Assembly: GCA_902774845.1 (NCBI GenBank)
Contig: CACYJU010000005.1
Location: forward strand, 22,050-86,049
Direction of reading: 5' to 3'
From: an uncultured Bacteroidota bacterium
Lineage (GTDB): Bacteria > Bacteroidota > Bacteroidia > Bacteroidales > P3
Length of the DNA: 64,000 nt
In this document: piece by piece, positions 1 to 14,099 of the stretch
How the letters are laid out: every line of letters begins with the position of its first letter
Position numbering within the stretch: position 1 is the stretch's first letter
Translations under genes and position numbers: made by a program
The notes under the pieces: generated by a model
Seen by the model: the letters and a program-made list of their open reading frames with translations, nothing else
The model's database searches: none
What the model was told of the DNA's origin: nothing

Positions 1-986
1 ATATTTATAGTCCAAAAGAAGTCATGGAATTTGTTTCCAATATAGGAGAGGAATCCAGTTGGAGGGTGTGGCATAGCGTTCCTGCACCTGCACGCGAATT
101 TTTTGACAGAATATTCTGGAACAGTCATACGGAATCAAAAGAGATGCTTTTATATGCTGAACGGGAATACATAAACACCCACTTTGCCAATTATGATCCT
201 GCAAAACAAGATATGTGGGCGGAATACAATCGCCCATGGGATTTTGATCATATTGTTGCACAAATTCGTATCAAAGGAAAGCAAGGGGATTTCCGTGAAT
301 ATGATAAAGTCTGGCTGGATAGCATAGGAAACTTTGCAGCAATATCATATGAATCAAATCGCAGTAAGAGCGATGGGGAGGATTATAGTGAATATTATGC
401 TAATCGTACCTCATTAGATTATAATAGCGATGTGGAGAAATTAAAATATGATTTGACTTATGATGCCTTATCGAGTGTTGAATTTGCGAACATCACCTAT
501 ACCCGTTTCTGTAAAATATATGGCAAAGTGTTTGACTTGATTAGGGAAATTGTTTGTCAGACAACCCTTTCCGATACCCTTTGGGAAAGAAAAGTCTTGT
601 TTGAAGAAGTGAAAAAATTATACCCCAATGCCATATTTCATTTCGCGGCTTCAGATCAAAATGATCACAAATTACAACGCGATCAAGATTGGGCAAGGCA
701 GTGGGTTGGAGTCGGAATCGAGATGGGCAATTATATGGCATGCGTAGAGTGGGCAGCCACTAAGAAAGATGGAAAACCTTCTGGTGTGGAATGTGGCATA
801 AGGAAAGCCCTCGGTACATCTGTAACCCAAGAGAATAAAGACACTCTTGGTGGAGATGATTTGTTGAATGAAGATAATGACTGGTGGTACAAATGTGTTG
901 TGTATGATTCCTTTGAATTAGAAAGCATAAAAATACAGTTAGACAAATATTTACTGGAAATAGAACAAACTAACAAGGCCGTATAA
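1..986 (+). CDS. C-terminal part of a DUF1524 / GmrSD-like His-Me finger nuclease (5' end outside the window)
   Basis: The frame is open from base 3 to the first ATG at 24, so the gene probably starts upstream of the window. WDFDHIVAQ ... IGNFAAISYESNRSKSD fits the DUF1524 (D/E)HIxP ... GN..L....N.SK signature. Confidence 0.6.
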   Translation, partial: IYSPKEVMEFVSNIGEESSWRVWHSVPAPAREFFDRIFWNSHTESKEMLLYAEREYINTHFANYDPAKQDMWAEYNRPWDFDHIVAQIRIKGKQGDFREYDKVWLDSIGNFAAISYESNRSKSDGEDYSEYYANRTSLDYNSDVEKLKYDLTYDALSSVEFANITYTRFCKIYGKVFDLIREIVCQTTLSDTLWERKVLFEEVKKLYPNAIFHFAASDQNDHKLQRDQDWARQWVGVGIEMGNYMACVEWAATKKDGKPSGVECGIRKALGTSVTQENKDTLGGDDLLNEDNDWWYKCVVYDSFELESIKIQLDKYLLEIEQTNKAV

Positions 987-988
987 TC

Positions 989-1105
989 ATGCTCCAATAC
1001 ATAGCCGATAGAGACATTTATACTGAAGTTCTTTTGTGGTGTTGGTCCAGTTGTGCATGACTTGTAGAATATGAATAATAGTTGACTTAAAAAGCAGGAT
1101 TTGCA
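989..1105 (+). pseudogene. Degenerate 5' fragment of a PLD/HKD nuclease gene
   Basis: atgctccaatacatagccgatagagacatttatactgaagt aligns with the start of the intact PLD gene at 2597 (atgctccaatatatagctgatagagatcattatacagaagt). It translates to MLQYIADRDIYTEV and then hits a stop at 1058-1060. Weaker nucleotide similarity continues to about 1105. Confidence 0.7.
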
Positions 1106-1124
1106 ATTTCAAAAAAATGTATAT

Positions 1125-1742
1125 ATGACAATATTGGAAAAATTACAAGCTGATATGCAATACAATGAGCGACATCAGTTGTTTGCTCCATACGATGATG
1201 GAAATATGGGACAAAGGTATGCAGGCCGGTACGAGTTAATTGGAGAGGATGAAGAAGGTGAATATAAGCGTTGGTTTTTTGATAATGGACACAATTATAC
1301 TTTATGTAAAAATTTAAACATGCTATATGAATGTGAACCTTTTCCGGCAGAATATTTTATCCATAAACATATTGAAAAGGCCATATATGATATTGTAACA
1401 AATAATTCTAAAGAGGAACAGCCATTGATTTTCTGCTATGAAAATGAGGTTGGATCCAGCAAAAACCCCGTTGTGTTGATAAAAGTAATTATCAACAGGG
1501 AGTCCCGTAATGTTTGTGTGACCAATATTTTCGTTCAGATGGAGAAAAGGCACCAATGTTACGGTAAACAATTGATTAGTAAAATATATGCTATATGTAA
1601 AATGTTTGGTTATCGATTATTCTTGACAGAAATGGTTGAGTCATTCTACAATAGAATGGTTCGTCGAGGTGCAAGAATAATTGAGGTGGGGAATGTGGTT
1701 GAAATAACAGATGACACAAATCTAACACCGGTTAAAGGCTAA
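1125..1742 (+). CDS. Hypothetical protein, possibly with a GNAT-like C-terminal fold
   Basis: ORF in an AT-rich cassette. ATG at 1125, with an alternative TTG at 1101 inside the PLD fragment. The C-terminal KRHQCYGKQLISKIY ... RLFLTEM weakly resembles the GNAT Q/RxxGxG/A region. Confidence 0.45.
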   Translation: MTILEKLQADMQYNERHQLFAPYDDGNMGQRYAGRYELIGEDEEGEYKRWFFDNGHNYTLCKNLNMLYECEPFPAEYFIHKHIEKAIYDIVTNNSKEEQPLIFCYENEVGSSKNPVVLIKVIINRESRNVCVTNIFVQMEKRHQCYGKQLISKIYAICKMFGYRLFLTEMVESFYNRMVRRGARIIEVGNVVEITDDTNLTPVKG

Positions 1743-1835
1743 AAAGTTCATCACAAGTTTGATGCTTTTATCGACTTTCAATTATCTTGAAGGAGGAAGT
1801 TCTAAAACCATCTTGACTTTAAAAAATAAAAAAAC

Positions 1836-2612
1836 ATGGAAGAGAAAAACCTTAATTGGGAAGAGTTTAATAAAGATAATCCATGGCGCAAAGAGATTTT
1901 TAACATTGACACAAATAATCCGGCTGCAATGAAAGATCTAATAGATGAAATTTGTAGTGGAAAAAGAAAGTTCATTTATTCTAAGGATAAAGGACAGATC
2001 AATGAAAAGCGGTTTGAACTATCTTTGTTGCCAAAACCTTATCGTGGAAATCTAAAAGACCCCAAACTTGTCATCTTGAGCCTTAATCCAGGTTATAATG
2101 AACGGGTGAAAACCAAACTGTTTAAGATGCTTAAATATGAAAATCAAAAAAGATTCATTGAAATATCCAAGAAAAACGCTTTGTTGGAATCCCGATATAT
2201 AATATCCCCAGATGATGAAGTGGACGATGTTATGGATAATGGTTATTGGTCAGATCGCTTATCTGAATTAAAAAATGATGGTGCAGAAATATCTCGGATA
2301 GGATTGATACAATTCGTTCCTTACGCATCGGAACATTTTGGTTCATGGAATAAAAAGGAATTAGAAACTCAAAAGTTTACACGAGAAATCATCATGCGCC
2401 TCTTAACCAAGTCAAAGGACACACTTTTTCTTGTCATGCGCTCAAAGGACAAATGGAAAAAACTGATTCCAGAAATGGATAACAAGGAATACAAAGATAA
2501 GTTTCTCTATAATCAGAATCCTCGTTGCCAAAATCTGTCAAAAAACAATTTGAAGGGCAATTACGAGATAATTCTTGGTAAACTAAAGAAATACCCATGC
2601 TCCAATATATAG
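1836..2612 (+). CDS. Hypothetical protein with MUG/TDG-like (UDG superfamily) motif order
   Basis: PKLVILSLNPGYNE (compare Mug GINPG), IGLIQFVPYASEHFG, DTLFLVMRSKDKW and LYNQNPRCQNLS (compare Mug LPNPSG). The last 16 nt overlap the PLD gene start. The function is an inference from these motifs. Confidence 0.45.
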   Translation: MEEKNLNWEEFNKDNPWRKEIFNIDTNNPAAMKDLIDEICSGKRKFIYSKDKGQINEKRFELSLLPKPYRGNLKDPKLVILSLNPGYNERVKTKLFKMLKYENQKRFIEISKKNALLESRYIISPDDEVDDVMDNGYWSDRLSELKNDGAEISRIGLIQFVPYASEHFGSWNKKELETQKFTREIIMRLLTKSKDTLFLVMRSKDKWKKLIPEMDNKEYKDKFLYNQNPRCQNLSKNNLKGNYEIILGKLKKYPCSNI

Positions 2613-3112
2613 CTGATAGAGATCATTATACAGAAGTCCTCTCGCGCTGCGAGCAGGTTAAGCATGACCTTTGGATTGGGACTGCTGACTTGAAGGATTT
2701 GTATGTTAAGGGCGGTAGGGATGTGGTGCCTTTTCTTTCGGTGCTGGACAAACTGGTGAAACGGGGTGTGGAGGTGCGGTTGCTGCATGCTAAGGAGCCG
2801 GGGGAGAACTTCCGCGAGGACTTCGACAAGTATCCTGGACTCTGGTCTCGCATGGAGCGGAGACTCTGCCCAAGGGTGCATTTCAAGATTATGGTGTTCG
2901 ACTGCTCGGTGGCATATATCGGCTCGGCGAACCTCACGGGTGCCGGCATAGGCATGAAGGGCGAGGGTAACCGTAACTTCGAGGCTGGCATACTGACAGA
3001 CGACCCCATGCTGGTGGATGCCGCCGCCAACCATATCGACAGCGTCTGGCAAGGGGTACATTGCATGAAATGCCGCCGCAAAGACTTTTGCACCGATTGC
3101 GTGAAAGCATAA
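2597..3112 (+). CDS. Phospholipase D-family (single HKD) Nuc-like nuclease with a C-terminal Cys cluster
   Basis: Perfect HxKxxxxD-x6-GSxN motif: HFKIMVFDCSVAYIGSANLT. The C-terminus carries CMKCRRKDFCTDC. At 171 aa it is consistent with a dimeric single-HKD enzyme. Confidence 0.8.
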   Translation: MLQYIADRDHYTEVLSRCEQVKHDLWIGTADLKDLYVKGGRDVVPFLSVLDKLVKRGVEVRLLHAKEPGENFREDFDKYPGLWSRMERRLCPRVHFKIMVFDCSVAYIGSANLTGAGIGMKGEGNRNFEAGILTDDPMLVDAAANHIDSVWQGVHCMKCRRKDFCTDCVKA

Positions 3113-3122
3113 CACCTCTCGC

Positions 3123-3154
3123 TATCAACACATCAACCTATCAACTTATCAACA
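3123..3154. repeat. Four 8-bp tandem units (TATCAACA/CATCAACC/TATCAACT/TATCAACA)
   Basis: Read directly from the sequence. The array starts 11 nt after the PLD stop codon. Confidence 0.9.
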
Positions 3155-3191
3155 TTTAGACACTGTGTCACGATTTGACATACTGGGTTGG

Positions 3192-3199
3192 TATCTTTG
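3192..3199 (+). promoter_or_regulatory. Bacteroidetes -7 promoter box TAtcTTTG
   Basis: ggTATCTTTGcaag lies 27 nt upstream of the ATG at 3226. It is preceded by tgtgtcacgatttgaca, which resembles the repeated hairpin modules at 11955, 12789 and 14121. Confidence 0.6.
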
Positions 3200-3225
3200 C
3201 AAGCGGAACTTAAAACTCAAAAATC

Positions 3226-3795
3226 ATGTTTCACTCAGATTCCAAACCTTACGACCTTGAAGTGGGCGAGTATGCCGGACTGCTGGCCAACCGCGAATAT
3301 TGGGACAGCTACTCGTATGAGTGGAGCGGATTCCATACAATGGACCAAAAACTCATACATTTGGCGGGATTTGTAAATATGGGCGGCGACCTCTTGTGGG
3401 TCATAAAGCACTACGCCAAAGGCCGCTCTCGGGAATACAGGTTCTGCATACACAGCGCCATATCAAGGTATCTGTTTCGCATGATTTCGGAGGGACTGAC
3501 GAAAGAGGAGCGCGCCAAAGACGATTCGGGCGTGAGGATGATGTTCCTCGACAGGGAGGAGCTGGTGGAGCTGCTGACTGAGGAGCTGAAACGCAAGGTG
3601 ACATACGATCTGAAAACCATTCGCACCGCATGTGGCTGCGATGTGGTAAGGAAATGGTATGTGGAAAGCCCCAAGGTGTTTGATGACACCGTGCTGGCGA
3701 AAATAGAGCAGGCCCACAAACAGGCCCATCCCGACGAAACCGTAGAGGACAAACGTCGCTACTATGAACGCTGGCTCCACGAATGTATGTTTTGA
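3226..3795 (+). CDS. Hypothetical protein
   Basis: 189-aa ORF directly downstream of a -7 box. No motif recognised. Confidence 0.5.
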   Translation: MFHSDSKPYDLEVGEYAGLLANREYWDSYSYEWSGFHTMDQKLIHLAGFVNMGGDLLWVIKHYAKGRSREYRFCIHSAISRYLFRMISEGLTKEERAKDDSGVRMMFLDREELVELLTEELKRKVTYDLKTIRTACGCDVVRKWYVESPKVFDDTVLAKIEQAHKQAHPDETVEDKRRYYERWLHECMF

Positions 3796-4338: not shown

Positions 4339-4449
4339 AAAGATTTTGATTTGTGAATACCGAGACGGCGGGCATCCTTGCTCGCCGTTTTTTCTTTGAA
4401 AAATATGACACTTTTTATCACTATGACAAGATATGGCATAGTATGTTGT

Positions 4450-4457
4450 TATTTTTG
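4450..4457 (+). promoter_or_regulatory. -7 promoter box TAttTTTG
   Basis: gtTATTTTTGcaagcgg lies 35 nt upstream of the ATG at 4492. Confidence 0.55.
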
Positions 4458-4491
4458 CAAGCGGAAACAAAAAAAGAAAGGAGATAATAAT

Positions 4492-6240
4492 ATGAAAAAA
4501 GATGCTAAGAAAACGGATTCAAGCAAGGAGGAGTTCTTGCAAATGGTAGACGAAGCAATGGGAATTGCAAAGGAGGCAGGATTGGATCTGGTGCCGGCGG
4601 AAGAGGAAGAGCGGGACTTGCTTTCGGAGGTGGAACAGATTGTTGAGCTTGCCAGAGAGTCGAGATTGTCGCAAGAGTTCTATCGTGTTGCGGACAACCA
4701 TATAAGCTATATCGCTGACAAGCTGAATCTGACGAAGAACCAGAGTGTGCTGCTTGCGTTGTTTGTAGACAATAGCGACGACAGCAGTATAGAACTGAGC
4801 GACCTGTCGAGGTATTTGGGTTGCAGCACGACGCGAATGTTACGTCTGTCGACAGAGATAGACGGACTTGTGGAGCGTGATTATATAAGAAAAGGAAAGA
4901 CGAGGGGCGAAGTGAGATATCATGTGCCACAGGAGGTGCTGGAATCCTTGAAAAAGAACCAACCGATAACACGGCGATGTATAGAAAATCTGGACTTGAC
5001 GAAGTTTTTTGACGAGATATCGGAGATATTCGACATGGTGAACGATGACGAGTTGGACATCGAGTCGGCGGAGAGACGCATCGAAGAACTGATGGAAGCC
5101 AACAAGCATCTGTCGTTTGTGGAGAAGGTTAAGGGACAGTATTGCGTTGAAAGACGTGATTTAATCATTCTGTTGATATTCTGCCACCTGTTCATCACGA
5201 ATGCTGACGACCAGATAGGTTTTCACGACTTGGAGTTTATGTTCAGCAGATGGCAGATGCGCAGCATTCGGTCGGAGTTGACGGGGGAATATAGTTCGTT
5301 GCAGCGGGATAAACTGATAGAGTGGAGCAGCAACGGGGGCTTTGCAGACAGGGAGTATTTCAGGCTCACGATGAACGCCAAGCGGGAGCTGCTTGACGAG
5401 CTGAACCTGCCGTCGCTCTCGAAGAATAAGTTGAAGCGCGGAGTGATGAAAGCCAGCGACATCAACGCAAGGAACCTCTTTTATGACACGAAGGTGACGC
5501 ACAGTATAGACGAGCTGGCGAGCCTGCTGGAGGAGGATAACTACCGCGACATACATGCACGGCTGCAGGAGCAGGGTTTCCGCTGCGGTTTCGCCTGCCT
5601 TTTCTACGGTGCTCCCGGAACGGGCAAGACGGAGACGGTGTTGCAGCTGGCACGGCGCACGGGACGTGACATACTTCAGGTGAACATCGCCGAGCTGAAA
5701 AGCATGTGGGTGGGCGAGAGCGAGAAGAACGTGAAGGCGGTGTTCGACTCGTACCGCCAGCAGGTGAAGAGTTCAGCCATCACGCCGATATTGCTTTTCA
5801 ACGAGGCCGACGCCATAATCGGCAAACGACAGGAGGGCGCAGAGCAAGCGGTGGAGAAGATGGAAAACTCCATCCAGAACATCATCCTGCAGGAGATGGA
5901 GACCCTCGACGGCATACTGATAGCCACCACCAACCTGGTGCAGAACATGGACAAGGCGTTTGAGCGCAGGTTCCTGTACAAGATACGGTTTGACAAACCG
6001 ACGGTGGAGGCACGGACGGCGATATGGCATGAGCTGCTTCCGGCATTGGATATGGCAGACGCCACGAAGCTCGCCGAGCGTTACGACTTCAGCGGAGGAC
6101 AGATAGAGAACATCGCCCGCCACTACGCCATCGACGCCATACTGCATGGCCATACTGCACCTACGGCAGAGAACCTGACGGCACACTGCGACTCGGAGAG
6201 GATAAACCAGAAGAATGAGGGGAGGAAGATTGGGTTTTGA
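4492..6240 (+). CDS. AAA+ family ATPase with a long N-terminal (wHTH-like) region
   Basis: Walker A GAPGTGKTE, Walker B ILLFNEADAI, sensor-1 LIATTN, then RRF. The start is placed at the ATG downstream of the -7 box, because the track start at 4378 lies upstream of that promoter. Confidence 0.8.
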   Translation: MKKDAKKTDSSKEEFLQMVDEAMGIAKEAGLDLVPAEEEERDLLSEVEQIVELARESRLSQEFYRVADNHISYIADKLNLTKNQSVLLALFVDNSDDSSIELSDLSRYLGCSTTRMLRLSTEIDGLVERDYIRKGKTRGEVRYHVPQEVLESLKKNQPITRRCIENLDLTKFFDEISEIFDMVNDDELDIESAERRIEELMEANKHLSFVEKVKGQYCVERRDLIILLIFCHLFITNADDQIGFHDLEFMFSRWQMRSIRSELTGEYSSLQRDKLIEWSSNGGFADREYFRLTMNAKRELLDELNLPSLSKNKLKRGVMKASDINARNLFYDTKVTHSIDELASLLEEDNYRDIHARLQEQGFRCGFACLFYGAPGTGKTETVLQLARRTGRDILQVNIAELKSMWVGESEKNVKAVFDSYRQQVKSSAITPILLFNEADAIIGKRQEGAEQAVEKMENSIQNIILQEMETLDGILIATTNLVQNMDKAFERRFLYKIRFDKPTVEARTAIWHELLPALDMADATKLAERYDFSGGQIENIARHYAIDAILHGHTAPTAENLTAHCDSERINQKNEGRKIGF

Positions 6241-6241
6241 T

Positions 6242-6332
6242 GTAAGAAGTAAGATGTAAGAAGTAAGATGTAAGAAGTAAGAGGGAAGAAGTAAGAGGGA
6301 AGAAGTAAGAGGGAAGATGTAAGAAGTAGGAC
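6242..6332. repeat. Thirteen 7-bp tandem units (GTAAGAA/GTAAGAT/GTAAGAG/GGAAGAA)
   Basis: Read directly from the sequence. The array begins 2 nt after the ATPase stop codon. The same heptamer family recurs at 58736-58763. Confidence 0.95.
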
Positions 6333-6390
6333 GTGTCCAGGTTTAATGGGGTTGCTTTGGTTGAAAGTTAAGCAGTAAAAACAATATTTT

Positions 6391-8220: not shown

Positions 8221-8325
8221 TTAATTGGCAACCTCCTTTTTGGGTAGGCTTATGAAGATACTATGGTGCAGGCATTGCTTTGAAAAAAATGCGTATAATT
8301 GCAAAAAAATTAAGTTTATAGAATA

Positions 8326-8565
8326 TGGATACAAATCTTATCGAAAGGAGAAACGCTGAATATCAACCTCTCATAGAGTCGTTCAAAGAGAGAATTAAAG
8401 GACTTGAGCTTGAAGGGATAACGAGACCGCAATTTCGAAGCTGGCATTCTAACCGACGAACCCAATCTCGTTGACGCCGCCGCCGACCACCTCGACAACG
8501 TCTGGCAAGGCCGCCCCTGCAAGAGCTGCAAGAGGAAAGACTTTTGTGGGGATAGGATTAGGTGA
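8326..8565 (+). pseudogene. Chimeric remnant: 5' end of a UDG-like gene (10768 family) joined out of frame to the 3' end of a PLD gene
   Basis: MDTNLIERRNAEYQPLIESFKERIKGLELEGITRPQF parallels MRKNIIDRRNAEYSPLIDDFKDEVKDLNFKGITGPHF of the 10768 ORF. From about 8424, another frame reads RNFEAGILTDEPNLVDAAADHLDNVWQGRPCKSCKRKDFC, parallel to the PLD C-terminus NRNFEAGILTDDPMLVDAAANHIDSVWQGVHCMKCRRKDFC. Confidence 0.75.
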
Positions 8566-8602
8566 GACTATAACGTCACTTGCATCTATAGTGGAATATT
8601 AG

Positions 8603-8610
8603 TACCTTTG
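8603..8610 (+). promoter_or_regulatory. -7 promoter box TAccTTTG
   Basis: agTACCTTTGcaaac lies 33 nt upstream of the ATG at 8643. Confidence 0.55.
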
Positions 8611-8642
8611 CAAACATTTATAAACCTAAAATCAATACCACT

Positions 8643-9256: not shown

Positions 9257-9973
9257 ATGGAACAATTAAGAGAAAATCTAAAACGTTTGTATCACGATTT
9301 CTTTGTTGACATGAAGATTGATCAACAAACAGGCATTGTCAATGGGACAAATCGAAGGTTCACTGGATACCCATACATCGGGGGCAACTATATAAACGCT
9401 CCTGTTAAAATATTGTTTATACCTTTAGATGTGGGTGTAGATGAAAGAGAAAATGAAAACACATACCATACATTTGAAAGTCGAAAAGACATTTTCCCAT
9501 CAGGCAAGCTTGATTTTAATCCACATATTGCGGGTTTATATGCAACTGCTCTTTATATTCTCAAGGAAAAAATGGGATTACAGGCTGCATGGGATGCTCT
9601 TTGGGGAAATAGAAAATATAATAATGTAAAAGCCATTAATCTGGCTTACGATTCTTTGCCCAAAGATCTTATGTCGTATGTGGCCTATGAAAATCGATTT
9701 CGTTTCGTCACAATTGGTAGAAAAGAAAGAAGTGGAGGCAACGATCGTGTTTGGATTAATCCAAAAAGAGAAGGTCAACTTTTAGTAACTGAAATTAATG
9801 CCTTCTCTCCAGATATTATTGTCTTTCAAGGAAAATATGGATTAGGCAATTGTCATATTGATGAACTAAAGGAGAAATATAAGGTTGTTATTGCATACCA
9901 TCCGTCATGTTGGCAGCATAGGGCTAATAGATTAGAATACATAGTGGATCACATTGGTCCACAATTGTTATAA
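9257..9973 (+). CDS. Hypothetical protein with UDG-superfamily-like motif order (paralog 1)
   Basis: Ordered motifs: VKILFIPLDVGVDE, SYVAYENRFRFV, SPDIIVFQGKYG, VVIAYHPSCWQH. They parallel UDG family-4 elements (hhhhGEAPG, N.VK, IV.LG, HPS). Confidence 0.5.
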   Translation: MEQLRENLKRLYHDFFVDMKIDQQTGIVNGTNRRFTGYPYIGGNYINAPVKILFIPLDVGVDERENENTYHTFESRKDIFPSGKLDFNPHIAGLYATALYILKEKMGLQAAWDALWGNRKYNNVKAINLAYDSLPKDLMSYVAYENRFRFVTIGRKERSGGNDRVWINPKREGQLLVTEINAFSPDIIVFQGKYGLGNCHIDELKEKYKVVIAYHPSCWQHRANRLEYIVDHIGPQLL

Positions 9974-10183: not shown

Positions 10184-10744
10184 ATGTGGATATTAAAGGA
10201 ACCTTATGATGATTTTGACGAAGATAAACCTAATGGAGGAGGATGGTCCATTACTGAACATTGTTTCGGGGGAAAAGATGATATATGGTCCCAGCGTACG
10301 TGGCAACCGATAATCTATGTCATGTATGGCTATCTACATAGCTTGATGTGGCAAGATATGGACTGGATAAGAGATAACAAGGATATGGCAGACGTTTTAA
10401 AAGACATAGCATATATCAATGTCAGTAAAATGCCTGGATATACTCGTTCAACATGGACCAACATCAGTCACTGTTATTCTTTGTGGAAACCCATTCTTGA
10501 CAAACAATTTGATATATATGACCCCAATGTTATTGTTTGTGCAGGGACACTGTCATTTTTTAAAGAGGACTTTGTTAAAAGCGGTATGTTACAGATTGAT
10601 TCGGTGCAAAGTGCGATAGATGTATATAGATTGGATAAGAAGATTATAATTGACGCATATCATCCGTTACAAACGAAAATAGACAGGAGCTCATATGTGG
10701 ATTCAATTATAAAAATGCTTAACAAGTATTTTCCGAAAAGTTAA
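10184..10744 (+). CDS. UDG-superfamily-like paralog 2, apparently N-terminally truncated by an in-frame TAA
   Basis: MWILKEPYDD, IAYINVSKMPGYT, YDPNVIVCAGTLSFF, IIIDAYHPLQ. The same frame reads MKTIKEL-TAA-KLQSQVVNEIYNHARKLGLSNDDLEPITDGVCSIEGYINSSPKI from the ATG at 10028. Confidence 0.5.
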   Translation: MWILKEPYDDFDEDKPNGGGWSITEHCFGGKDDIWSQRTWQPIIYVMYGYLHSLMWQDMDWIRDNKDMADVLKDIAYINVSKMPGYTRSTWTNISHCYSLWKPILDKQFDIYDPNVIVCAGTLSFFKEDFVKSGMLQIDSVQSAIDVYRLDKKIIIDAYHPLQTKIDRSSYVDSIIKMLNKYFPKS

Positions 10745-10767: not shown

Positions 10768-11919
10768 ATGAGAAAAAATATTATTGATAGAAGGAATGCT
10801 GAGTATTCTCCCCTGATTGATGATTTCAAAGATGAGGTAAAGGATTTGAATTTCAAAGGAATCACAGGTCCTCACTTCCCGAGTATTGGCGAATGCTATG
10901 AAGATGCAAAATATAAGTTTGCTTTTTGTGGTATGGAAACGTATGGATGGAACAAAATGCCGTATTTTATGGAACAAAAACCAGACTCATATTTGACTGA
11001 AAGTGATACCCTTCTTAATAATTATGAACATCTGACTTGGGCAGCAAACTGGCATGCAACATTTTGGGGATTTGTCTTCAAGTTTTTAGCCAAATTCTAT
11101 AAGATGGAATTTGAAAAACTAGTCAATGATAAGAACGACTTTAACGCCCGTTCTCTTCTAAAAAGTTTCGTATGGGCAAATTCAAATGCTATTGAACGGT
11201 ATGATGTAACAAGCAAATGGGAAGGTGCTGATCAAGCAGCATGGGAGTCTGTTAAAAGCGCCAGTAAAAGATTTGACGATATTAACCACATACTCAATTC
11301 ATGTGATCCAAAAGTTGTTTTTATCATTTATGGCGGAGCAAATGAAGAATATATGCTGAATGAAAAAACAATAAGTGATATTTATGGCATTGACCCTAAC
11401 CAAAGAAAAGGTTGGTTGCGATTGCGTCATAATAACCCTAAATATGACTATATTTATCTTCGCAGTACATCTACACACATTTTCCACTTGCCTCATCCTA
11501 CCTGGATGGGTTTATATAGCGGTATAGGAATAGACGCTTATGTGGATTCGTTGATTCAAGATATCGAAAACTATCATATTTGGGATAAATTACCAAATTC
11601 GAATGATGACTGGAACATGAATATGGTGGATGAAGTCGAACCTTCAACTATCGATTTCAAATATCGACTGATTGCTTCGGTCGCACATTCTTTGGTTCAG
11701 AATAATGTGGTAATGTGTGGCGGTGATATGGTTAGATTATTCAATATGAACGGAATTCATACGCAAAGAGGTTCTGACTATTCAAACAACATTAGTCAAG
11801 GATCATATAAGCCCATTTCCAGTGCTTGGGCATACTATTATAATAGGGGTGATTATCAGACGGCATACGAAATCGCACGAGCTTTTGTTAATCAAAATGG
11901 AGAATATGCCTACGAATAA
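10768..11919 (+). CDS. UDG-superfamily-like paralog 3 with a roughly 110-aa C-terminal extension
   Basis: KYKFAFCGMETYGWN, SFVWANSNAIERY, CDPKVVFIIYGGANE, THIFHLPHPTWMG. The N-terminus is homologous to the remnant at 8326. Confidence 0.5.
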   Translation: MRKNIIDRRNAEYSPLIDDFKDEVKDLNFKGITGPHFPSIGECYEDAKYKFAFCGMETYGWNKMPYFMEQKPDSYLTESDTLLNNYEHLTWAANWHATFWGFVFKFLAKFYKMEFEKLVNDKNDFNARSLLKSFVWANSNAIERYDVTSKWEGADQAAWESVKSASKRFDDINHILNSCDPKVVFIIYGGANEEYMLNEKTISDIYGIDPNQRKGWLRLRHNNPKYDYIYLRSTSTHIFHLPHPTWMGLYSGIGIDAYVDSLIQDIENYHIWDKLPNSNDDWNMNMVDEVEPSTIDFKYRLIASVAHSLVQNNVVMCGGDMVRLFNMNGIHTQRGSDYSNNISQGSYKPISSAWAYYYNRGDYQTAYEIARAFVNQNGEYAYE

Positions 11920-11954
11920 AAGGCTGTGATTATTTGAAAATCCAATCTTTTGAA

Positions 11955-12038
11955 GGAGTGTCACAATCTGGCACTCCTTTTGTTTTTCTTTGCATCTTGT
12001 AACAGGAAAGCAAAACTTATTTATTTACTTAAAACTTT
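11955..12038 (+). promoter_or_regulatory. Terminator-promoter-leader module, copy 1
   Basis: Hairpin GGAGTGTCAcaatcTGGCACTCC, a T-tract TTTTGTTTTT, a TTTG box (ttctttgcatc), and the leader cttaaaactttatgattatga. It is similar to the modules at 12789 and 14121. Confidence 0.65.
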
Positions 12039-12530: not shown

Positions 12531-12606
12531 CCGTTACACCGTTGCACCGTTGCAGTTCGTTTTTCATATAGGGGGATTTTCACTTGGAACTGCAACGGTG
12601 CAACGG
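12531..12606. repeat. Perfect 20-bp inverted repeat built from CCGTTGCA 8-mers (three forward, two reverse)
   Basis: Left side is ccgttaca ccgttgca ccgttgca gttc (12531-12558). A 28-nt spacer follows. Right side is gaac tgcaacgg tgcaacgg (12587-12606). Confidence 0.9.
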
Positions 12607-12788
12607 CAAAAATGCCCTGATTCGTAATCATCTGATTACCAATGGATGTTAAATTCCGTGTGTTGTGGGAGTTGACTGGGAGTTAGTACGGAGTTGGTAC
12701 GGAGCTAAACGAATTTTGAATTCCTAATTTTGAATTATGAATATAGACGGGGACTTTTTCAAGTTGAAAGTTGATTTTTTTTGTGGGA

Positions 12789-12857
12789 GTGTCACGATGT
12801 GGCACACCTTTTGTTTTTCTTTGCAACTTGAAAAAACAAACAAAACGTTTATGCATT
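12789..12857 (+). promoter_or_regulatory. Terminator-promoter-leader module, copy 2
   Basis: GTGTCACgatGTGGCAC hairpin, ACCTTTTGTTTTT, ctttgcaacttgaaaaaacaaac. It lies directly upstream of the ATG at 12858. Confidence 0.65.
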
Positions 12858-14099
12858 ATGAGAAATAAGGGATTAATGCCGAAGCAAGTGGACACTTCGA
12901 TGATTAAGGACTGTATTGGAGTAAAAGAAGGGGTTGATGAGGATGAAATACGTAAAGGGGAATCGCATATACTGGAGACGCTAAATGCTTACGGAATAGG
13001 GGTTGAACGGATAACCGCAGAGCTGCGACTCAGCGTGATTTATTATGAGGTGTTCCCGTCGAAGGATTTTGGCTTTCTGGAATTGAAAAAACATTTGTAT
13101 GATTTTTCCGTTTCGCTTGGCTCGATATACGCACGAATATTAGTGCCTGTTCCTGGCAAGGTGGCGATAGGAATAGAGTTTCCCAGAACTAATCCGCAGT
13201 TGGTCTCGGCTAAAGAGGTCTTCGATAGCGAGGCTTTTAGGGGGAGTGATGCAATCTTGCCCGTTGTTTTCGGGAAAACAGATTTGAACCAATACTATGT
13301 GTCGGACCTTACGAGAATGCATCATATTCTGATTGCAGGAGCCACCGGGATGGGTAAAACCATGTGCCTGAAGTCGATGATAGTTGGCTTGTTGTACAAG
13401 AAACGGAGTCCTGAGTTAAAACTGGTATTAATCGACACCAAGAGAGTGGAATTCAATGTATTTACGTCCCTTGATACAACTTTCTTTGCCAAAGAAAAAA
13501 ACATTGATACCGACATTATTACTGGTACGATGCAATCAATAAGGATGATCAATGCTTTGAAAATGGAGATGGATAAAAGGTATGATCTTCTAAGAGAAAC
13601 AGGTACGAGTAATATTGAGGACTATAATGAAAAACAATTCCAAAATGGAAATGAAGAAGGATGTCACTGTTTGCCATATATCGTGGTTGTAATTGATGAA
13701 TTTGCGGACCTGATGCTTACGTCAAGAAAAGAATTGGAAGAACCCTTGGTAATGCTTGCTACATTAAGTCATAGGGTAGGTATCCATTTGATTATGTCAA
13801 CCCAACGTCCAACAACCAATATTGTGACTGGTTCGATATTGGTCAATTTCCCTATTCGGGTGGCATTTAAAATGGCAATACCATCGGAGTCAAGACGTGT
13901 TATAGGCAGAGATGATGCGGTTTGTCTGATTGGTAATGGAGATATGTTTATCTCCACGCCGTCTGACAATGAACCAATACGTTGTCAAGGGGCTTATGTG
14001 TCCGATTCCGATACTGCAAACATTGTGAGGTTCATTAATGGACAAAATGGATGTTTGGATGATGAATATTATCTGCCAATGATGGGTAAAGAGGAATGA
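12858..14099 (+). CDS. FtsK/SpoIIIE-family DNA translocase ATPase domain protein (no TM segments seen)
   Basis: Walker A IAGATGMGKT, Walker B VVVIDEFADLM, and MSTQRP. The start is set at MRNKGL after the promoter module, because the track start at 12771 runs through that module. Confidence 0.8.
   Translation: MRNKGLMPKQVDTSMIKDCIGVKEGVDEDEIRKGESHILETLNAYGIGVERITAELRLSVIYYEVFPSKDFGFLELKKHLYDFSVSLGSIYARILVPVPGKVAIGIEFPRTNPQLVSAKEVFDSEAFRGSDAILPVVFGKTDLNQYYVSDLTRMHHILIAGATGMGKTMCLKSMIVGLLYKKRSPELKLVLIDTKRVEFNVFTSLDTTFFAKEKNIDTDIITGTMQSIRMINALKMEMDKRYDLLRETGTSNIEDYNEKQFQNGNEEGCHCLPYIVVVIDEFADLMLTSRKELEEPLVMLATLSHRVGIHLIMSTQRPTTNIVTGSILVNFPIRVAFKMAIPSESRRVIGRDDAVCLIGNGDMFISTPSDNEPIRCQGAYVSDSDTANIVRFINGQNGCLDDEYYLPMMGKEE

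Follow-up and report, generated by a model that had tools for sequence, protein, structure and literature searches.

Anti-phage DNA glycosylases (Brig1, Brig2, Brig3, Dag1 and Dag2) have been described only between 2024 and 2026, from soil metagenomes and integrons. Here we analyze the gene at positions 1836-2612 of a 64,000-nucleotide (nt) stretch of DNA ("the window") from an uncultured bacterium of the Bacteroidales (Bacteroidota; assembly GCA_902774845.1, contig CACYJU010000005.1, positions 22,050 to 86,049 of the forward strand). It encodes a protein of 258 amino acids (aa) with a uracil-DNA glycosylase (UDG) fold and overlaps a gene of the phospholipase D (PLD) family. Among the described enzymes, Brig1 acts as a single gene, and the abasic sites that it creates halt replication and cause DNA breakage (Hossain et al., Nature 2024, PMC11078745). 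Highly divergent UDG-like defence proteins carried by integrons, Brig2 among them, are detectable mainly by structure (Getz et al., bioRxiv 10.1101/2025.10.29.685425), and Brig3-BapA combines a UDG-superfamily defence glycosylase with an overlapping partner gene that widens its range (Mejia-Pitta et al., bioRxiv 10.64898/2026.02.25.707755). We consider it probable, if well short of certain, that the gene of the window encodes a stand-alone Brig-type defence glycosylase of the UDG superfamily, carried as AT-rich cargo, together with a GNAT-like ORF, in a mosaic, variable island of a rumen Bacteroidales genome in which the PLD gene is resident. Antiviral UDG-fold glycosylases are already known; the 258-aa family appears to be new, remotely related to them and carried on a new type of element.

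A sequence-only reading of the stretch had proposed a translationally coupled two-gene system, in which a MUG/TDG-like glycosylase and a PLD nuclease with a single HKD motif act together on modified phage DNA. The claims made there are taken up below where the results bear on them.

A uracil-DNA glycosylase fold related to Brig1

The open reading frame (ORF) is a real gene, because 52 homologues with 28-98% identity were found in a collection of 5.8 billion proteins and a profile of the family retrieved 1,264 relatives at E<=1e-3 among 1.84 billion cluster representatives (50% identity clusters). The 258-aa protein itself had no match in Pfam or PADLOC. PF03167 gave no hit with the protein and was absent from the families listed for 120 relatives, among which no Pfam family recurred. 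Searches of PDB sequences with the protein or the family profile returned spurious matches only (a fimbrial subunit with E = 0.036, for example). The family is large and is covered by no Pfam model and by no NCBIfam model above threshold. Many of its remote relatives of 390-460 aa (P0173-P0257) carry an additional N-terminal part of about 150-190 aa.

The NCBIfam model "anti-phage DNA glycosylase Brig1" (NF047634) matched the protein at E = 0.0019 over residues 59-88 only, which covers the region of the LNPG motif. With 17.7 bits this match stayed below the equivalog cut-off of 230 bits. The same model matched 52 of the 120 relatives found with the family profile, at best with E = 8.2e-14, and was aligned by P0258 at positions 18-152 and by P0299 at positions 39-151. 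Transitive homology thus indicates that the 258-aa protein is a distant branch of the Brig1-like UDG superfamily and not a Brig1 orthologue.

We modelled the protein with AlphaFold2 on the alignment of its homologues and obtained a predicted local distance difference test (pLDDT) score of 88.5 and a predicted template modelling (pTM) score of 0.88. When the PDB was searched with this model using Foldseek, the UDG 5gn2 took rank 1 (probability 0.99, E = 7.9e-3, TMq 0.42) and UdgX proteins took ranks 2-6, the structural neighbours being BdiUNG and family-4-like UdgX. In the viral library BFVD a phage UDG ranked first (probability 0.99), and further matches were other UDGs and several DNA polymerase I-type proteins. 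As modelled, the protein belongs to the UDG superfamily at the level of the fold, with a structural likeness that is modest but consistent. The sequence-only reading was therefore right about the superfamily, on the evidence of AlphaFold/Foldseek and the chain to Brig1, but the specific assignment to MUG/TDG (family 2) is not supported, as no Mug or TDG was among the top 50 Foldseek hits. With Mug, the protein has only the Asn of motif A in common. Aligning the family profile with hhalign gave a probability of 0.3% for E. coli Mug (sequence entered by hand) and of less than 1% for the single sequences of three other genes of the window, orf238, orf186 and orf383, and these pairings are too shallow to inform.

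The two motifs pointed out by that reading do fall within the best-conserved stretches of the family. In motif A a strand (78-82) leads into an invariant L-N-P-G (81-86), the whole of LILSLNPG being invariant, and in motif B a strand (223-225) is followed by N-x-N-P-R-C-Q, with P229, C231, Q232 and N238 conserved. More than 100 diverse members show little or no variation in the Asn-Pro-Gly of motif A and the loop of motif B. Throughout the alignment of the 258-aa family N84-P85, Y137-W138, Y163, M201-R202, Q232 and N238 do not vary; N84-P85, Y137-W138, Y163 and Q232 are compatible with a UDG-type pocket. Functionally important residues of Brig1 are Y121 and E147. Through P0299, E147 can be placed at the invariant Tyr163 of the family (PYAS motif), in a mapping that is approximate and made by spacing only. 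If this mapping is right, a Tyr at the position of E147 suggests a different substrate.

Independence of the glycosylase-like gene from its PLD neighbour

Both ORFs, their overlap of 16 nt on the plus strand and the perfect HKD motif had been recognized correctly. The PLD ORF contains the complete HxK(x)4D(x)6GSxN motif (HFKIMVFDCSVAYIGSAN), and its product scores above the Pfam thresholds of PLDc_2 (45.4 bits, cut-off 27) and PLDc (31.2 bits, cut-off 21.9). It is a single-HKD PLD protein, nuclease-like as proposed, and DrmC-like: its best profile matches are the defence-associated DrmC, DpdK and MkoB, all of them below the cut-offs of these families in NCBIfam and PADLOC. Membership of a DISARM system was rejected because the score against DrmC is below the cut-off (43.6 bits, cut-off 133) and partner genes are missing: PADLOC recognized none of 10 neighbouring proteins as a further DISARM component, and Pfam scans of the ORFs between 12.8 and 29 kb revealed no DrmA/B-like genes. 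Dpd or Mokosh partner genes were not detected in the examined parts of the window either. The protein has no close solved structure and, unlike secreted Nuc, no signal peptide noticeable by eye in the sequence. The cluster of C-terminal Cys residues (HCMKCRRKDFCTDC) described before is present in the window but not maintained in relatives, as the fourth Cys is gone in loci L002 and L010 and L001 keeps just two.

The idea of a translationally coupled pair did not hold up. At the very start of PLD, GC content steps up from about 33-35% to about 53%, and in every locus compared the glycosylase gene has 34-37% GC and the PLD gene 49-59%. Compared with the window, L010 has 84% aa identity in PLD and 46% in the glycosylase, whereas L002 has 79% in both. 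The PLD of the window is thus nearer to that of L010 than to that of L002, the opposite is true of the glycosylase, and the gene trees disagree.

Surveys of gene neighbourhoods from both sides gave a similar picture. PLD was found in 79 Bacteroidales species genomes at 58-87% identity, none of which (0/79) has a member of the 258-aa family within 6 kb. The gene upstream of PLD mostly lies on the same strand at a spacing of -8 to +70 nt, and 62 such neighbours fell into 45 clusters. By Pfam, 57 of the upstream neighbours include GmrSD_N (6, the commonest), HAD (4) and GT9 (4) as well as Sel1, SusD and RNase_T proteins. Seen from the glycosylase, about 14 lineages could be compared. PLD is directly downstream in 4 of them (the window group, the 80% group, the P0036 group and L106/L112), directly upstream in 2 (L108-111, L115-116), and close but not adjoining in 2; at least 5 lack it (the P0035 and P0013 groups, L102/103, L118-120 and L100/L105). 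It is also absent in all four distant glycosylase lineages that were sampled, two of which have a divergent WYL/WCX regulator instead. The 16-nt overlap is confined to the lineage of the window, and the spacing in other lineages is +3 to about +47 nt.

Comparison with the loci L125 and L126 revealed a recent exchange. Between positions 1112 and 2533 the window differs from them by 9 of 1,422 nt (99.4% identity), whereas identity falls to 88% in the PLD flank (2597-3091) and to 73% in the left flank (986-1111), beyond which the sequences are unrelated and L125/L126 have a different GmrSD pair. At L125 9495-10011, and in L126, the PLD frame is broken near codon 68 and the glycosylase gene is intact; this may reflect decay or possibly an assembly error, and given the latter we weighed the frameshift as supporting evidence only. 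PLD itself is mosaic: against L099 the identity is 99% over positions 1892-2631, drops to 89% over 2632-3011 and rises to 100% over 3012-3167.

Because of the GC contents, the gene trees, the two-sided neighbourhood surveys and the 99.4% identical cassette with diverged flanks, we conclude that the glycosylase gene moves without PLD and that the two form no dedicated two-gene system. PLD, whose GC resembles that of the backbone, is a conserved resident of the island and a neighbour rather than a dedicated partner of the glycosylase. Overlapping frames and adjacency to a nuclease gene are insufficient for calling a system when one of the partners is a resident recombination anchor. No TAnnTTTG box (the Bacteroidetes -7 box) was found upstream of PLD, of the glycosylase gene or of orf213, the gene that precedes it. 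Lacking a promoter box of its own, PLD is therefore probably transcribed by read-through from the cargo upstream.

Phage GenBank records contained no relative of PLD and one weak relative of the glycosylase (26% identity), and IMG/VR yielded only 1-2 loci, with one glycosylase relative in a viral contig. In PLSDB, PLD was found on one 317-kb Segatella megaplasmid, where it belongs to a comparable mosaic that also includes an exonuclease, an AAA ATPase, a PD-(D/E)XK nuclease and a WYL protein. Our search of the literature found no described glycosylase-PLD system and no Bacteroidales PLD hotspot.

The mosaic island and its other UDG-like genes

The features of the locus are collected in Table 1.

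Table 1. Position of the genes, gene remnants and other elements of the locus within the window
Feature	Position	Strand	Evidence or remarks
GmrSD/DUF262-DUF1524-type (type IV restriction-like) gene, 3' ~40%	1..986	+	cut by window start; frame open to base 3
PLD gene 5'-end remnant, 59 nt	983..1041	+	direct repeat D5, 78% identical to 2591-2649
orf213, GNAT-like (acetyltransferase-like), 205/213 aa	1101/1125..1742	+	weak Acetyltransf_7 match
AT-rich cassette, recently exchanged: orf213 and most of the glycosylase gene	1112..2533	+	comparison to L125/L126
258-aa Brig1-like UDG-superfamily protein, putative DNA glycosylase	1836..2612	+	34% GC; model, Foldseek, NCBIfam Brig1
171-aa single-HKD PLD-family (Nuc/DrmC-like) protein	2597..3112	+	54% GC; PLDc_2 9e-12, PLDc 2e-7
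Promoter-like repeat with Bacteroidetes -7 box TATCTTTGCAAGC	3152..3215	+	repeat D4 with 4410-4473; before orf189
orf189, no family match	3226..3795	+	tblastn maps of glycosylase and PLD loci
orf383-family (UDG-fold) gene 5' remnant, ~36 codons	8325..8432	+	MDTNLIERRNAEYQPLIESFKERIKGLELEGITRPQF aligns with orf383 N-terminus MRKNIIDRRNAEYSPLIDDFKDEVKDLNFKGITGPHF
3' remnant of a second PLD gene, ~46 codons	8408..8565	+	repeat D2; translation RNFEAGILTDEPNLVDAAADHLDNVWQGRPCKSCKRKDFCGDRIR, then stop
orf238, candidate UDG-superfamily gene, separate family	9257..9973	+	sub-threshold PF03167 match of a relative
orf186, candidate UDG-superfamily gene, separate family	10184..10744	+	TIGR00758 UDG_fam4 E 0.064
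orf383, N-terminal UDG-fold domain and extra C-terminal domain	10768..11919	+	AlphaFold2 pLDDT 88.7; Foldseek

Three further genes of the window, orf238, orf186 and orf383, stand in tandem and look like three additional, mutually unrelated families of the UDG superfamily. A relative of orf238 (L040:6529-7260) matches PF03167 below threshold (E = 0.032), and relatives of this gene lie directly 3' of PLD in L040 and L052. Relatives of orf186 match PF03167 at E = 0.0017 and 0.08, again below threshold. For orf383, which has 132 homologues, the top 11 PDB matches in Foldseek were all UDG or UdgX (1ui0, E = 8e-4, probability 1.00).

The region around 8326-8565 had been taken for a deleted second copy of the glycosylase-PLD pairing. 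The PLD part of this claim was correct, as positions 8408-8546 are 73% identical to 2952-3090 in the 3' part of PLD. The part in front of it is no copy of the 258-aa gene but the 5' end of a gene of the orf383 family, which also has a UDG fold, and the two remnants are joined out of frame. The remnant records a different UDG-fold gene that formerly preceded a PLD copy. By these assignments the island appears to carry at least four UDG-like genes and the remnant of a fifth copy. The crowding of UDG-fold families around a repeated PLD gene is what we regard as worth pursuing.

Two full PLD copies around cargo were observed in L025 (2697-7697), L036 (3224-6501) and L001 (2045-6836), the order in L025 being PLD, GmrSD, PLD and orf383. 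Such two-copy islands fit PLD as a repeated recombination anchor. Site-specific cassette exchange of the integron type was considered and rejected, as the graded identity suits homologous recombination better; a recombinase or att-like site was not sought beyond the 5' end of PLD.

The GmrSD-like gene noted upstream of the glycosylase gene is not "immediately" upstream of it, since a PLD remnant and the GNAT-like orf213 lie between. Only the C-terminal part of the GmrSD-like product is encoded inside the window. It matches GmrSD_C of Pfam with 16.8 bits (E = 0.006, cut-off 23) and has 78% identity over 315 aa with the C-terminal third of a 789-aa ORF in L025. The PLD remnant begins 2 nt past the stop of this gene, reads MLQYIADRDIYTEVL and decays afterwards; the same 39-codon remnant was called in L125 and L126. 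Among 33 homologues of orf213 some match PF13508/PF00583, and in contigs L127-L130 homologues were seen directly after or near GmrSD genes. This placement suggests that orf213 is an accessory gene associated with GmrSD rather than a partner of the glycosylase. Downstream of PLD, orf189 had no match in Pfam, NCBIfam or PADLOC. It adjoins the Brig1-like gene, upstream or downstream, in about nine lineages and often lies 3' of PLD, and as a neighbour of the glycosylase it is no less frequent than PLD.

Repeated promoter-like elements of 60-70 nt are located at 3152-3215, 4410-4473, 8570-8640, 11948-12014 and 12779-12845. A perfect -7 box (TAnnTTTGCAA) lies 34-40 nt before the starts of orf189 (34 nt), the AAA gene and orf180, and the D3 pair (11948-12014 and 12779-12845) has a TTTGCA-like core only. 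These repeats look like portable promoters at module boundaries. Between the AAA ATPase and DUF932 genes we observed a purine-rich array with a periodicity of 14/21 nt (6220-6334; GTAAGAAGTAAGATGT...), which may be a regulatory or iteron-like element. A perfect 20-bp inverted repeat (CCGTTGCACCGTTGCAGTTC / GAACTGCAACGGTGCAACGG) with a 28-nt spacer is present at 12539-12606, just 5' of an FtsK/SpoIIIE-family gene (12771-14099).

The defence-like character that the sequence-only reading had ascribed to the surroundings is supported by GmrSD, REase-ARP, WYL and Fic genes in the window. Altogether, the backbone and island genes comprise a 3'-5' exonuclease, an AAA ATPase, DUF932, an FtsK-like protein, Fic/RhuM, WYL, DUF6946 and REase-ARP. 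In the segment 16053-23545, Fic/RhuM is followed by a WYL/WCX regulator and then by DUF6946, REase-ARP (PDDEXK_13) and a UvrD-like ORF. The island appears to end at dnaE (24250, i.e. 24.25 kb). Elsewhere, relatives occur in rumen metagenome-assembled genomes, in a phage-like contig with a capsid-like gene, at a chromosomal spot beside ribosomal protein genes and on the Segatella plasmid. The 80%-identical glycosylase homologue adjoins an Eco29kI restriction-modification (R-M) system and a Schlafen-like ATPase. An ADP-ribosyl glycohydrolase gene stands beside the glycosylase in the P0035 and P0036 lineages; such genes have been reported beside Brig1 (PMC11078745) and beside Brig3 (bioRxiv 10.64898/2026.02.25.707755).

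Proposed function and comparison with known defence systems

How might such an enzyme act without a dedicated partner? By analogy with Brig1, Brig2 and Brig3, the 258-aa protein would flip out and excise a non-canonical (modified) base of invading phage DNA. The abasic sites would then block replication and lead to strand breakage, with no need of a dedicated partner nuclease. The slots of the island that take up the glycosylase gene also accommodate GmrSD-type enzymes, restriction genes and at least three or four further UDG-like families, and PLD would be read through from whichever cargo sits 5' of it. Repeated copies and remnants of PLD would provide homology for the recombination that swaps the cargo, and this would account for the tight abutment or overlap and for the PLD fragments at 983-1041 and 8408-8565.

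Some observations weigh against this interpretation. The TM-scores are only 0.40-0.42 at an E of about 7e-3 and come without a Pfam UDG match. The position of Brig1 E147 is apparently occupied by Tyr, on the spacing-only mapping, so that no substrate can be predicted and catalysis itself is uncertain. Several UDG-like genes abut the PLD start tightly (-16, -4, -4, -4 and +1 nt), a recurrence beyond what a pure "hotspot" model would obviously predict. Lastly, the island is also similar to the early or leading regions in which mobile elements accumulate anti-defence genes.

The recurrence of UDG-like genes at the PLD start is the main reason why we kept a modular two-component defence under consideration, an unlikely account but the best placed of the alternatives. 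PLD would be the common downstream effector, and an interchangeable upstream module (a Brig1-like glycosylase, another UDG-fold protein or GmrSD) would mark or nick DNA with modified bases, so that a swap alters the specificity while the effector stays. The missing promoter box and the nearly constant strand and close spacing relative to the upstream gene (-8 to +70 nt) agree with this. At least four UDG-like families without sequence relationship abut a PLD start: the 258-aa family (window, L002, L010 and L106), the orf186 family (L021, L036, L038, L052 and L098), a 202-aa ORF in L020 and the orf383 family (remnant 8325-8565). GmrSD is the commonest Pfam family 5' of PLD (6/57 loci), and PLD nucleases are accessory effectors in DISARM, Dpd and Mokosh, whose DrmC, DpdK and MkoB are the profile matches obtained here. 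However, PLD is also found 3' of HAD hydrolases, glycosyltransferases, SusD and Sel1 proteins. The glycosylase does without PLD in at least five close and four distant lineages and has it upstream in two, the PLD of L125 is frameshifted beside an intact, 99%-identical glycosylase gene, and GC content and phylogeny are discordant. Moreover, GmrSD, being a nuclease, requires no effector, and Brig1 works alone (PMC11078745).

A bolder form of this idea makes PLD the fixed core of a swap-in array, in which at least five unrelated UDG-fold families and GmrSD are exchanged directly upstream or downstream and PLD finishes off abasic DNA. We think this less likely still. If true, rumen and gut Bacteroidales would possess a modular "base-excision restriction hub" that changes its specificity as cassettes are swapped by recombination within PLD copies.

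More doubtful again is that the glycosylase-like protein, and PLD likewise, serves the mobile element, in anti-defence or DNA processing in the early or leading region of a phage or conjugative element. It could, for example, remove adducts inflicted by the host such as ADP-ribosylated bases, or attack the DNA of competing elements. The 49%-identical P0036 does lie with PLD in the phage-like contig that has a capsid-like gene, together with a run of amidoligase, GATase, NUDIX, ADP-ribosyl-glycohydrolase and HD genes. One relative is present in an IMG/VR viral contig, and the 3'-5' exonuclease, AAA ATPase, DUF932 and FtsK-like genes of the backbone are typical of mobile elements. Yet genuine defence genes (GmrSD, R-M systems and REase-ARP) occupy the same slots, distant relatives are flanked by WYL regulators, which are typical of defence loci, and the sole characterized relatives, Brig1, Brig2 and Brig3, are defence enzymes; prophages and integrative and conjugative elements also commonly bear defence cargo. 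Least likely of all, and in our view improbable, is a UDG-like fold that excises no base and serves as a non-catalytic DNA binder or as an enzyme on another substrate: the missing Pfam UDG match, the TM-scores of about 0.4 and a residue at the E147 position that is not a conserved Glu or Asn (approximate mapping) would fit it, but motif A Asn-Pro-Gly and the motif-B loop are near-invariant over more than 100 members, UDGs are the top structural matches in two libraries and the homology chain leads to Brig1.

We therefore favour a stand-alone defence glycosylase that travels as cargo. Its family is large, remotely related to Brig1 and found in rumen and gut Bacteroidales. If active, the UDG-like proteins would be new enzymes that recognize modified bases, and their activity would imply that the phages of these anaerobes use more kinds of DNA base modification than currently known.

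The protein of the window resembles Brig1 in its UDG-superfamily fold, its length (258 aa, compared with 254 in Brig1), its single-gene architecture and its context of defence islands and mobile elements, with ADP-ribosyl glycohydrolase neighbours in some lineages of the family. It differs in coming from Bacteroidota, whereas Brig1 is mostly found in Actinobacteria, and in the apparent invariant Tyr at the position of E147, Brig1 being an alpha-glucosyl-hydroxymethylcytosine DNA glycosylase. With Brig2 the locus has in common AT-rich, recently acquired cassettes near mobile elements and many sequence families side by side; the carrier, compared by description, is an integron for Brig2 and here a Bacteroidales island that recombines at conserved resident genes. 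Brig3-BapA is a precedent for a glycosylase gene that overlaps a neighbouring gene. However, BapA is an ASCH-type glucosyl hydrolase that acts before the glycosylase, whereas PLD would be a nuclease that acts after it, and PLD of the window is not conserved with the glycosylase. PLD itself is similar to Nuc, DrmC, DpdK and MkoB in its one HKD motif, and its small size is consistent with a Nuc-like homodimer.

As a whole, the island is reminiscent of the P2/P4 hotspots, which Rousset and colleagues reportedly described in 2022 as defence hotspots of mobile elements between conserved genes. In both cases a conserved backbone brackets defence cargo that is rapidly exchanged and compositionally foreign, with recombination in the flanks. 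In contrast to those hotspots, the anchor gene PLD is itself repeated in the window and leaves truncated copies in the array, and the cargo is unusually rich in UDG-fold genes.

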